Part shown: one piece after another, positions 13,775 to 16,625 of the stretch
Layout of the letters: each line of letters opens with the position of its first letter
Position numbering within the stretch: position 1 is the first letter of the stretch
Assembly: GCF_003001995.1 (NCBI RefSeq)
Contig: NZ_PVNB01000019.1
Coordinates: 29,120 to 61,119, forward strand
From: Orenia metallireducens
Lineage (GTDB): Bacteria; Bacillota; Halanaerobiia; Halobacteroidales; Halobacteroidaceae
Direction: 5' to 3'
Length of the DNA stretch: 32,000 nucleotides
Notes under the pieces: generated by a model
What the model was told of the DNA's origin: nothing
The model's input: the letters and a program-made list of their open reading frames with translations, nothing else
Databases searched by the model: none
Translations under genes and position numbers: made by a program

Positions 13775-15352
13775 CTATAATTCATACCCTTTATGATACT
13801 TAAAGTCCTTAATATAAAATTTTAAGCCTTGCTTTTTAAGCAGTTGCCCTGTTTTTTGAGCTGAAGCCATAGTCTTAAAAGGACCTAACTGTACTTTATA
13901 AGTCCCTTCATTTACAATATCAGCTTCAAAACCTTTTTTCTTTAATTCTTGCGAGAAATTTCTAGCATTCTCTTCTTTATCAAAAGCACCAACTTGAATT
14001 ATAAAAGCTTTAAGCAAATCATCATTAGATGCCTTTTGGCTAACTAATAACAGTTCTTTGTGATCCTGTTCTTTCTTTAAGCTGATATTTTCTTGGTTAT
14101 CATTAATATTTTCTGTCTCTATAGAGGGCTTCTTATCTTGTTTTTTAGTTGGAGTATCTAAGCCACTATTATCATTAATAATCTTAGGAGTAATAAAGAT
14201 AATCAACTCTCTCTTTTCACTTTCAAAGTTCTTTTGACTAAAGAGCTTGCCTAAAATAGGTAGATCACCTAACAGGGGAACTTTAGACATAGTTTCATAC
14301 TCTTTTTCTTGAATCAATCCACCAATAGCTAAAGTCTCTCCACTATTGACCTTGACCTTAGTTCCAACCTTCTTGATACTAACTGTAGGATACCGGGTCC
14401 CATTAATCTCAACCCAGTCTAAAAAGGTGGTTATCTCTGGCTGTAAATCGATAAAAATATTATTGTCATCAGTTATCTTAGGGGTTATCTTCAAATCAAT
14501 CCCGATATTCTTAAACTCTATCTCCTGAGAGGTCTCATCCTCATCTGTTGTCTGGAGTGTTAAAATAGGAATCTCATCACCGATATTGATATTGGCCTCT
14601 TCACCTTCAATCGTTGTAATCTTTGGATTTGCCAAAACATTGGCTACCCCTGAACTCTCTAAAGCCTCTAAAGAGACACTATAATTGAAGTTTAGATTCC
14701 CAATCTTTAAATTCGGCGTAGTACTTGAACTCCCATCATCTACCTTGCCCTCACCTGAAAACTCCCAATTGACCCCTAAATCCTTTAACCCTGTATGGGA
14801 TATCTCTTCAAAACGAACCTGTAAAGCAATCTGCCTTCTAGAGTAATCTAAGGCAGCAATAGTCTCTTCAATTTGATCGAAATTACTTTCATAAGTTGTA
14901 ATAATTAGACTATTAGTGCGCTGATTAATCTTGATTGCCCCATCATCGATTAAATGGTCTAAATTCTCTTTGATCTTTTCTGGGTCAGAGTTTTTGAGTT
15001 TAAAGACTCTAGTTAGCTTAGCTTCATAATTCTTCTTTATCTTCTCAGTAGGAGCAACAAAGATGGTATTATGAATAATTTTATAGCTTAAACCATTGGT
15101 CTTAGTTAGAATATCCATCGCTTCTAAGAAGGACACATTGTCTAAATAAAGGGTAATCTTTCCCTCTATCGAGCTATCAGTGGCTATATTCATTTCTGCT
15201 GTCTCTGCCAAGATTCTAAAGGCCTCTATTAAGTCCATATCCTTAAAATTGAGATTAATCTTATCTTCCTTAGATAACGCCTGTCCAGTAGAATTAAATA
15301 AAAATAATAGCAGTAATAGTAGTATAAATTGATTAATCCTCTTTCTTTTAAT
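13775..15352 (-). CDS. pilQ: Type IV pilus secretin PilQ with C-terminal SPOR domain; predicted non-canonical (ATT/ATC) start
   Basis: Secretin C-domain signatures (VLANPKITTIEGEEANINIGDEIPI; LAIGGLI...SKVPLLGDLPILGKLF...RELIIFITPKII). The last ~78 aa resemble a SPOR repeat. The ORF track starts at the ATG at 15238, but the open frame continues upstream and encodes IKRKRINQFILLLLLLFLFNSTGQA (a Sec signal peptide) behind AAGGAGG. See the finding. Confidence 0.85.
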   Translation of the reverse strand: MKRKRINQFILLLLLLFLFNSTGQALSKEDKINLNFKDMDLIEAFRILAETAEMNIATDSSIEGKITLYLDNVSFLEAMDILTKTNGLSYKIIHNTIFVAPTEKIKKNYEAKLTRVFKLKNSDPEKIKENLDHLIDDGAIKINQRTNSLIITTYESNFDQIEETIAALDYSRRQIALQVRFEEISHTGLKDLGVNWEFSGEGKVDDGSSSTTPNLKIGNLNFNYSVSLEALESSGVANVLANPKITTIEGEEANINIGDEIPILTLQTTDEDETSQEIEFKNIGIDLKITPKITDDNNIFIDLQPEITTFLDWVEINGTRYPTVSIKKVGTKVKVNSGETLAIGGLIQEKEYETMSKVPLLGDLPILGKLFSQKNFESEKRELIIFITPKIINDNSGLDTPTKKQDKKPSIETENINDNQENISLKKEQDHKELLLVSQKASNDDLLKAFIIQVGAFDKEENARNFSQELKKKGFEADIVNEGTYKVQLGPFKTMASAQKTGQLLKKQGLKFYIKDFKYHKGYEL

Positions 15353-15427
15353 GATTCTCCCCTCCTTTTTTTAGAAAGATTTGATAATGTATATATCTCA
15401 TTCTGAAATAAAGTTTAAGATAGATAA

Positions 15428-15532
15428 TGCGACATTTTCGTTATTTTATAAATTTTAATCTTTTTGTAGAGTCTGGTCGCGACCAGACCCTACTTTAGAA
15501 ATTGTTCGTTATCCATTTGAAAAAATGTCACA
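15428..15532. repeat. Nested palindromic element in the pilP-pilQ gap
   Basis: GC-rich 28-nt palindrome GTAGAGTCTGGTCGCGACCAGACCCTAC (15466-15493; 13 of 14 arm positions complementary). It is flanked by the direct repeat TTCGTTAT (15437-15444 and 15505-15512) and by the outer inverted repeat TGCGACATTTT / AAAATGTCACA (15428-15438 and 15522-15532; 10/11). Confidence 0.6.
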
Positions 15533-15608
15533 ATATACCCACATAAAAGATACTATTTATCCTGAAGTTTAACTAGAACGATGAATATAATAGACAATGT
15601 AATCACCT

Positions 15609-16136
15609 CTAATCTCTATCATCAATTCTAAATTCAAAGTAACTCTCACCCTTTTTAAAGGTAGCACTATTTCTAGAGATATCTACTAGAGTAAACCTAT
15701 CGATTTCCTGCCCCTTACTAAGGCGTTTATAATCTCCAGCAAATTCGATATTAACACGCCGATATTCACCAATTATCACTATCCCCTTCAAATCAAAGTC
15801 AGGTCGTTGAATCTCTATCTTCTGCTTTTTCTCAATCTTCTCTTTAACTTCATTATTATTTTTAACCTCTTTAACTCTATCCTCTGCTAGTTTCGTTGCC
15901 ATAGCTACTGCTAGCTTAGAGTTAAAAGGTGATTTCAGTTCAACATCACTATCACTAACTTGACTCTCATTTTTGGGGGATATCTTTATCTTGTGAGACT
16001 CTTTAAGATTACCTTTAGCTATTTTCTCCTTAAAAGCATTTATCTCTTCTCTTTTTTGCCCCCAATTATCTTGATGGTGAAAATACAGTCCACAACTTAG
16101 AATTACTAGCAGTACTAAAATTATCAGTTTTCTCAA
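15609..16136 (-). CDS. pilP: PilP-like pilus assembly lipoprotein
   Basis: Signal peptide with a lipobox-like VILSCG. K/E-rich linker. C-terminal beta-rich module (DFDLKGIVIIGEYRRVNIEFAGDYKRLSKGQEIDRFTLVDISRNSATF) resembling the PilP/GspC homology region. Positioned between pilO and pilQ. TTG start directly after the pilO stop. Confidence 0.55.
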   Translation of the reverse strand: MRKLIILVLLVILSCGLYFHHQDNWGQKREEINAFKEKIAKGNLKESHKIKISPKNESQVSDSDVELKSPFNSKLAVAMATKLAEDRVKEVKNNNEVKEKIEKKQKIEIQRPDFDLKGIVIIGEYRRVNIEFAGDYKRLSKGQEIDRFTLVDISRNSATFKKGESYFEFRIDDRD

Positions 16137-16625
16137 TTATGACTCATTCCTCTCTATAGGAAAAAGGAGGGATACATTTACGACCACTTCTTCTTTACTC
16201 TGTCTGATATTTATAGCTTTGGTATTATAGAGATATTCAATACTCTCTAAAAGATCATATATCTCTTGAAAATTCCCATTGATTTCCAAAGAGATTAATA
16301 GTTCTTCCTTAGGCGGTAGTGTGAAATCTACCTTTTTAATAATTGTATAACTATTCAATTTGATAATAAAGCTATTTATTTCATCCTTATTTAAGAGATT
16401 ATTATCACTACCTTCTTCTAATTCTGCTAATAGAGACTTATACTCCTCCTCTAACTTCTGCAAGGCCAATACTTCTACTCTCTTCTTATCTAATTCGCTA
16501 CTCAGATGGCTAAATTCGATAATATTCTGTTGATATTTAGCATATAAGGGGTTATAGATAAATTCATAGAATCCAGACCCTATTAGTAATAGGATTAGTA
16601 CAATCACAAGCCATTTTTTCCACAT
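16137..16625 (-). CDS. pilO: PilO-like pilus assembly protein
   Basis: 162 aa: N-terminal TM helix, coiled coil, small C-terminal domain. Position after pilN. AAAGGAGAA SD. Confidence 0.6.
   Translation of the reverse strand: MWKKWLVIVLILLLIGSGFYEFIYNPLYAKYQQNIIEFSHLSSELDKKRVEVLALQKLEEEYKSLLAELEEGSDNNLLNKDEINSFIIKLNSYTIIKKVDFTLPPKEELLISLEINGNFQEIYDLLESIEYLYNTKAINIRQSKEEVVVNVSLLFPIERNES

Follow-up and report, generated by a model that had tools for sequence, protein, structure and literature searches.

The window analysed here, 32,000 nucleotides of Orenia metallireducens DNA, carries on its minus strand a pilQ-type secretin gene that raises a simple question: at which codon does its translation begin? 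The public gene model (P0002, 487 aa) starts at the first in-frame ATG, at 15238. The reading frame continues upstream of this codon, and between the TAA that closes it (15373-15371) and ATG 15238 the minus-strand secretin frame contains no canonical start (ATG, GTG or TTG). Here, we argue from sequence comparison that pilQ is very probably translated from an AUU codon at 15352, under the direction of a strong Shine-Dalgarno (SD) sequence, as a precursor that bears a signal peptide. The features on which the question turns are the following.

13775..15352, minus strand: complete coding sequence of the pilQ-type secretin, 525 codons and a stop if translation begins at the ATT (translation, Pfam, PilQ structure alignment)
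15236..15238, minus strand: first in-frame ATG, read here as internal Met39; start of the public 487-aa model P0002
15278..15352, minus strand: predicted Sec signal peptide (25 codons), which signal peptidase I is predicted to cleave after GQA; matched in all relatives
15350..15352, minus strand: proposed ATT start, 8 nt past GGAGG; in-frame ATT at 23 of 25 family loci
15353..15355, minus strand: ATC, an alternative start judged unlikely, 5 nt from the SD; codon differs in relatives
15361..15370, minus strand: extended SD, AAAAAGGAGG, which includes AAGGAGG at 15367-15361
15371..15373, minus strand: in-frame TAA closing the pilQ frame upstream (sequence reading)

The secretin and the N-terminus ahead of its first ATG

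PilQ in Halanaerobiales has so far been recorded merely as present (PMC5007114). The gene in the window lies in a minus-strand type IV pilus cluster, in which several genes with pilin-type N-terminal methylation motifs are followed by pilM, pilN, two small genes without a Pfam match, and the secretin. The protein combines STN/N0, Secretin_N, Secretin and C-terminal SPOR domains (Pfam; Secretin 1.6e-49, with Secretin_N and STN exceeding their cut-offs and an N0 match at 23.6 bits, slightly below the cut-off of 27), and its closest named proteins are those of Orenia marismortui and Halanaerobacter. PilQ structures in the PDB match it at E of about 2e-45. The N0/STN, N1 and secretin domains align with those of type IVa PilQ (P. 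aeruginosa 6ve2, 9x0w), but the Orenia protein, which comes from a diderm Firmicute, is shorter, has a SPOR domain at its C-terminus and is devoid of AMIN domains.

Downstream of the closing TAA the codons read AAA AAG GAG GGG AGA ATC (15355) ATT (15352) AAA AGA AAG AGG ATT AAT CAA TTT ATA CTA CTA TTA CTG, and so on to GAT (15241-15239) and ATG (15238). Spacers of 8 nt and 5 nt separate AAGGAGG (15367-15361) from the ATT and the ATC, respectively, and the longer stretch AAAGGAGG pairs over 8 nt with the 3′ end of the genome's own 16S rRNA (...GGATCACCTCCTTTCTAAG). A spacing of 8 nt falls inside the 7-8 nt mode of the genome's ATG genes, in which 263 ATG starts follow GGAGG at spacing 7 and 156 at spacing 8. 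Folding of the pilQ start region gave no structure above that of shuffled sequence (z = +1.57), and we therefore propose no riboswitch-like or SD-masking element. In a promoter and terminator scan of 15200-16200 the number of sites was likewise not above that in shuffled sequence, so no promoter is claimed. Two further candidates were rejected: a frameshift or transcriptional slippage at the A7 run ahead of the SD, since there is no upstream ORF to feed in, and the downstream ATT at 15337, which lies 23 nt from the SD and as a start would cost the protein its basic n-region.

The 38 extra codons ahead of ATG 15238 supply the protein with a typical Sec signal peptide and with its first N0 strand (IKRKRINQFILLLLLLFLFNSTGQA/LSKEDKINLNFKD under the ATT model). 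The predicted signal peptide has an n-region charge of +4 and an 11-residue hydrophobic core of Leu and Phe, FILLLLLLFLF, which gives a best 11-residue Kyte-Doolittle window of 3.59, compared with 1.30 for the best such window in the first 70 residues of the ATG model. Hence the Sec signal peptide that a PilQ carries is predicted under the ATT model only. Moreover, the alignment with solved PilQ structures (6ve2, 9x0w) begins at residue 30 of the ATT model (DKINLNFKD vs EKLSLNFQD), 9 residues upstream of the ATG-encoded Met, and the Pfam N0 match starts at residue 34. With the signal peptide and the first N0 strand both encoded upstream of ATG 15238, the ATG model is left without an export signal and with a truncated N0. 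The preliminary description of this locus had reported the open frame, the lack of a canonical start and the two AAGGAGG spacings, all of which the codon reading bears out, and had claimed that the signal peptide is encoded upstream of a first ATG that is not itself workable, with which the hydrophobicity, N0 and PilQ-structure alignments agree. A comparison of the first 38 codons gave pS of about 0.23 and pN of about 0.11, on sites too few to weigh; the comparison was confined to these codons because indels made a crude ungapped dN/dS past codon 45 unusable.

In the mechanism that we propose, the extended SD, 8 nt upstream in an unstructured A-rich region, would position the 30S subunit at AUU 15352, where the initiator fMet-tRNA would read AUU as a near-cognate start. 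Such decoding would presumably be IF3-dependent, with IF3 discriminating against AUU, and give an output several-fold to 100-fold under that of AUG. The product would be a 525-residue precursor from which the 25-residue Sec signal peptide would be cut off after GQA, and the mature secretin would begin just ahead of its N0 domain.

Conservation of the ATT codon in the Halobacteroidaceae and ATT starts elsewhere in the genome

A search of assembled contigs for related loci returned three distant secretins and no close kin, and the relatives compared here came from a search of genomes that covered all 13 in the family (6 genera) plus 28 others from the order and class. It recovered 25 PilQ-type family loci with their 5′ ends. 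Comparison of these upstream regions, a check that the preliminary description had suggested, found the signal peptide kept in all relatives, and at 23 of the 25 loci (13 family genomes) the motif GG[AG]GG-N8-ATT stands in frame. The remaining two have ATT at +7 in one case and ATC at +7 in the other. In at least five loci there is no canonical start before the hydrophobic core, namely the window, the congener G002, and three Halanaerobacter-like loci (L008, L010, L072). G002 is particularly restrictive, as it reads AAGGAGGGGATT TAA ATT AAT, with an in-frame stop immediately 5′ of the ATT, so that only the ATT or something later can be the start there.

Many family loci read GGAGGTGA-N5-ATT and have an in-frame GTG three codons before the ATT (GGAGGTG), which gene finders take as the start. 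We assign this GTG to the SD itself, since it has no SD of its own upstream and lies within a perfect complement to the 16S end. It may conceivably serve as a start in the loci that have it; the pilQ of the window has no such GTG. In the sister family (f2), the same SD-relative position is occupied by GTG (L012) or ATG (L015, L020, L022), and most loci in other families of the class have an ATG ahead of the signal peptide; the position of the ATT is thus homologous to these starts. In a maximum-likelihood tree of 27 sequences, ATT occurs in nearly every deep clade, both paralog groups of the genome included, among proteins that are only about 40% identical and whose n-region residues around the ATT vary freely. 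The family genomes are kin, and locus counts overstate their independence; nonetheless, about nine deep lineages keep the ATT, and this codon would be ancestral to Halobacteroidaceae pilQ.

ATT starts in this genome are not specific to the secretin. The genome was scanned for ATT codons downstream of GGAGG that open a frame of 120 codons or more, lack an in-frame canonical start upstream and are not followed by one in the next 12 codons. Six such codons lie at spacing 8; spacings 6, 7 and 9 have none. Across the genome, other codons and control motifs (CCTCC, GGTGG, GAGAG) gave scattered zeros to twos with no spacing peak, and the clustering of ATT at spacing 8 exceeds chance. About ten candidate non-canonical starts were collected in the genome, of which seven are backed by the positions of Pfam domains; supported ATT, ATC or ATA starts include those of infC, rodA, TetR, TrmB, a gerAB-like permease, and others. 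The Pfam domain begins upstream of the first canonical start for IF3, FtsW/RodA, an ArsP-type permease, TetR (ATC), and TrmB (ATA). infC, the classic AUU-started gene, also starts at ATT here and served as a positive control. An OpuAC lipoprotein has a signal peptide and lipobox (...LTGC) under an ATT/ATC model only, its first canonical start lying 85 codons downstream, and the rodA ATT of Orenia stands at the exact position of ATG, TTG or GTG in other genera. None of the non-canonical genes found by the scan (infC, rodA and the rest) lies close to an upstream stop codon, and such stand-alone genes make SD-directed initiation at ATT plausible in this genome.

The junction with the upstream gene and its separated copy in the window

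Across the family, the secretin start is commonly fused to the end of another gene. At 16 of the 25 family loci the junction reads ATTAA or ATTAG, the T of ATT being the first base of the TAA or TAG that ends the upstream gene. This gene has about 180-220 codons, occupies the pilP position, and contains the SD of the secretin; in coupled loci its product ends in tails such as ...YTLGGEEN or ...EGGHQN, each followed directly by the stop. A further two loci reach the end of their contigs. The genome's own paralogous secretin (pilQ2, on contig C6) has exactly the ATTAA overlap layout, and in family f2 the corresponding junction carries the classical ATGA and GTGA overlaps. No ATG can have its last base in common with a stop codon, and the one-base overlap is therefore specific to an ATT-type start. 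The same geometry helps explain why the T of ATT is frozen, because a T-to-G change would make an ATG yet destroy the upstream stop. On the other hand, most loci have Lys or Arg as the second residue, and an overlapping TAA or TAG then arises partly by itself, from ATT before AAR or AGR.

Another ATTAA junction, unrelated to that of the secretins, was found on contig C5, between a GerA-family gene and a Spore_permease gene. Under the ATT model of the latter, the Pfam profile begins at residue 6; the nearest canonical start thereafter is 125 codons further on. Most of what a genome-wide scan for XY[T]AA junctions returned was noise from ATG-ATT pairs, and pilQ2 and this gerAA/gerAB-like pair alone survived inspection.

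Overlapping stop and start codons are a textbook layout for termination-reinitiation coupling, described for ATGA and TGATG (Huber et al., 2019; PMC6728339). As in those junctions, 16 of the 25 family secretin starts share a base with the upstream stop; they differ in that the overlap is ATTAA/ATTAG, with a non-canonical start, and in that the copy in the window has lost its overlap with the real upstream gene (PMC6728339). A literature search for AUU in overlapping coupling junctions returned nothing relevant. The ATTAA layout suggests translational coupling of the secretin with the upstream gene, the overlap itself being the presumed cause. Under such an arrangement, ancestral secretin synthesis would have been fed largely by ribosomes finishing the upstream gene, while the weak start would have kept independent initiation low. 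The preliminary description had proposed that a weak start throttles the secretin stoichiometrically, which is plausible. Since the secretin ring and the PilMNOP proteins that it works with are required in about the same numbers, there is no obvious need for a simple throttle; the family layout would be better matched by a weak start that makes the secretin depend on ribosomes from the upstream gene.

In the window itself these two genes have come apart, and three further features bear on how pilQ is translated there.

15609..16136, minus strand: upstream pilus gene, 175 aa, in the pilP position and without a Pfam match; its stop lies 256 nt before the ATT
15441..15497, minus strand: core of a dispersed repeat with the palindrome GTCTGGTCGCGACCAGAC, with about tenfold excess depth, loose ends, and about 8 other genomic copies
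15348..15401, minus strand: upstream ORF (uORF) of 17 codons (MRYIHYQIFLKKGGENH, then the stop), with a TAA that overlaps the ATT (AT[TAA]); no SD precedes the uORF, and congeners lack it

Between the upstream gene and pilQ there are about 215 nt, the repeat included, that alignment shows to be missing in the congeners G001 and G002. The distance from the upstream stop to the ATT is 13 nt in G002, 28 nt in G001 and 256 nt in the window, where the ATT does not overlap the stop of the real upstream gene; the Orenia pilQ1 lineage no longer has the overlap. With about 215 nt now separating the genes, initiation of pilQ in the window must be SD-directed. The ATT and its SD are kept in three Orenia genomes without the overlap, which argues that the ATT works alone and against its being purely a hitch-hiker on a stop codon. 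In the proposed sequence of events, the repeat-bearing insert would have set the genes apart and left pilQ to SD-directed initiation at AUU, and a low constitutive output is expected of this uncoupled copy.

The same insertion admits a different outcome. Because it has cut pilQ from its operon partner, expression could be very low, or the C6 paralog could be the working secretin. The window's pilQ would then be barely translated, or not at all, and decaying, with the ATT as a relic. The insert parts the two genes in this genome only, and the genome encodes two further secretins, of which the C6 paralog keeps its ATTAA overlap. Decay is nevertheless unlikely, since the 525-codon frame, all domains, the SD, its spacing and the ATT are intact, the protein is 90% identical to its G001 ortholog without stops or frameshifts, and stand-alone ATT starts far from upstream genes are used elsewhere in the genome.

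If pilQ is translated with its signal peptide, the ATC at 15355 could take the place of the ATT, adding one residue to an otherwise identical protein. It is near-cognate, in frame and downstream of the same SD, and a few relatives (L071, L023) have an ATC at SD+7/+8. However, G001 has GTA at this position, G002 a TAA stop and genus g2 AAA. The ATC position being variable in relatives, it is not the conserved element, and ATT 15352 is favoured. Its spacing of 5 nt is also rare for ATG starts in the genome (41, vs 263 at spacing 7 and 156 at spacing 8). A start at the ATC is accordingly quite improbable. The preliminary description had left the choice between ATT and ATC undecided; its non-canonical AT(T/C) start behind a strong SD stands, and comparison picks the ATT and drops the ATC.

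A further route to the AUU would not depend on the SD alone. Ribosomes could translate the 17-codon uORF from its ATG at 15401 and reinitiate at the overlapping ATT, its stop meeting the ATT exactly as the stop of the upstream gene does in coupled relatives. Also, the 3′ part of the uORF resembles the C-terminal tail of the upstream gene in those relatives (...KKGGENH vs ...TLGGEEN, each before the stop), and the uORF may partly be a leftover of that tail. Against delivery of ribosomes by the uORF, its ATG has no SD (the upstream sequence is atcttaaactttatttcaga) and the ORF is absent in both G001 and G002, which makes this route very unlikely and favours SD-directed initiation at AUU 15352.

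A start at ATG 15238, or a canonical start missing through sequencing or assembly error, can practically be set aside: that ATG is the sole canonical start in frame and public gene calls use it (P0002), but the resulting protein would have no signal peptide and a truncated N0, the 38 upstream codons are conserved as coding in relatives, and neither the assemblies nor the orthologs point to an error. Contigs from three public runs in three studies show 0 differences over 15100-15700 at 60-260x word depth, and a fourth run is identical over 15309-15556, although some of the compared runs may be the source sample. Identity among independent assemblies means that the ATT is not a sequencing error, and the same codon in relatives is a stronger argument against error than the matching runs. 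The preliminary description had allowed that orthologs or resequencing might reveal a canonical start here; instead, the assemblies are identical and the same ATT is found in 12 other genomes.

Known AUU starts and significance

The nearest published case is ebpA of Enterococcus faecalis, in which an ATT start 120 bp upstream of the annotated ATG lowers expression in comparison with an engineered ATG (Montealegre et al., 2015; PMC4447247). The ebpA start was first predicted in silico and then proven by mutagenesis (PMC4447247). Both genes encode pilus-related exported proteins, and in both the annotated ATG lies downstream of the ATT, by about 120 bp in ebpA and 114 nt in pilQ. On the other hand, EbpA is a sortase-pilus adhesin of a monoderm, whereas PilQ is an outer-membrane secretin of a diderm Firmicute, and the case for its start is a comparative one. 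Unlike the ebpA ATT, that of pilQ is kept across a whole family and two paralog groups, usually in overlap with an upstream stop.

Translation from AUU is established in other bacteria as well. In E. coli, infC and pcnB start at this codon. One report puts E. coli AUU initiation at 1-2% of AUG (Hecht et al.; 10.1101/063800), and another describes conserved AUU/AUA starts in S. aureus (infC, cvfC1, ccpN, citZ), all with extended SDs and about 10% of AUG output (PMC13009471). A near-cognate start that is conserved among relatives is common to the E. coli and S. aureus cases and to pilQ, and the S. aureus sites share with pilQ a strong or extended SD. They differ from pilQ in that the genes they describe encode cytoplasmic regulators or enzymes, with no secretin among them, and overlap of AUU with an upstream stop is not mentioned in the parts consulted (PMC13009471, 10.1101/063800). 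A literature search for secretin or PilQ together with AUU returned nothing relevant. The pilQ ATT would add a deeply conserved AUU initiation in an envelope protein to a kind of start that is already known, with the ATTAA junction as a possibly new variant.

More tentatively, the ATTAA/ATTAG overlap of the Halobacteroidaceae could be a selected coupling device. A weak AUU and a strong SD would tie the secretin to ribosomes that are finishing the upstream pilus gene, locking its output to that of its assembly partner and limiting free, potentially toxic secretin, in a lineage that would use AUU, AUC and AUA far more than E. coli does. This is a possibility that we hold with some doubt.

There are also consequences for annotation. 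Public models of these secretins disagree on the start: that of this genome (487 aa) uses an internal ATG and that of O. marismortui (505 aa) a TTG within the signal peptide, while others begin with an ATG within the signal peptide, with Met codons far inside the protein, or with ATGs far upstream. With the public 5′ ends of the secretin family wrong, localisation predictors will misplace the pilus outer-membrane channel of diderm Firmicutes. ATTAA is a start/stop overlap that only a non-ATG start can form, and the findings as a whole suggest that in strongly SD-dependent Firmicutes such as the Halanaerobiales near-cognate starts are commoner than annotation pipelines allow.

Candidate non-canonical starts elsewhere in the genome

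Judged from sequence, about ten ATT, ATC or ATA starts with strong SDs appear to be in use in the window's own genome (G000), and in seven of these candidates the first canonical start lies downstream of the onset of a Pfam domain or signal peptide. In rodA, ATT occupies the codon at which other genera carry ATG, TTG or GTG.

Candidate non-canonical starts in G000 (contig:position)
C22:42059, ATT, infC
C11:94312, ATT, FtsW/RodA
C15:15284, minus strand, ATT, ArsP permease
C10:72179, ATT, GNAT
C3:83089, minus strand, ATT, HEAT-repeat protein
C8:34550, minus strand, ATT
C18:2090, ATC, TetR
C5:136517, ATA, TrmB
C17:16654, ATT/ATC, OpuAC lipoprotein

A second ATTAA start/stop overlap joins two spore-germination genes on C5. 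The Spore_permease gene is headed by an ATT whose T is common to the TAA of a GerA-family gene of 523 codons, and 125 codons separate this ATT from the next canonical start downstream.

C5:209275 (locus L102:1676), ATTAA overlap, GerA-family/Spore_permease

Secretin paralogs and tandem secretins

Three secretins are encoded in G000. At the C6 paralog, the start codon still overlaps the stop of the gene upstream of it (ATTAA). Relatives' counterparts of the C7 secretin begin at canonical start codons.

C6:172288-173466 (L075), secretin paralog, 43% identical
C7:139578-141041 (L003/L005), secretin, 28% identical

Genus g6 carries a tandem pair of PilQ-type secretin genes on one strand, with approximately 360 nt between them. 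In G007, both genes have an SD-N8-ATT start.

G007:C1:1011554-1014413 (L068/L078), tandem PilQ-type secretin genes
G009:C29 (L067/L079), tandem PilQ-type secretin genes

Sequences upstream of the secretin start

In many loci of the family and of its sister family f2, and in most of the coupled ones, where the stop of the upstream gene overlaps the secretin start codon, TTAT(A/G)NNNTT is conserved immediately 5′ of GGAGG (for example, ttatactcttGGAGG and ttatgaatttGGAGG). Rather than a promoter, the motif probably represents coding sequence for the upstream protein, whose C-terminal tail (...Y-T/I-L-G-G-E) is conserved.

Within the window, a dispersed repeat lies inside the approximately 215 nt between the pilP-position gene and pilQ, absent from the congeners G001 and G002.

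15441-15497 (wider, about 15415-15540), dispersed repeat, palindrome GTCTGGTCGCGACCAGAC

The repeat, approximately 50-120 nt in size, has about eight further copies in G000 and a contig-graph depth of approximately tenfold; in appearance it resembles REP or MITE elements.

Secretin C-terminal modules

Across the family, the C-terminal peptidoglycan-binding module varies between secretin orthologs: SPOR is found in G000 and Halanaerobacter-like proteins, whereas O. marismortui, Halanaerobaculum and Selenihalanaerobacter carry LysM. This alternation suggests that the wall-anchoring modules of the secretin have been swapped.
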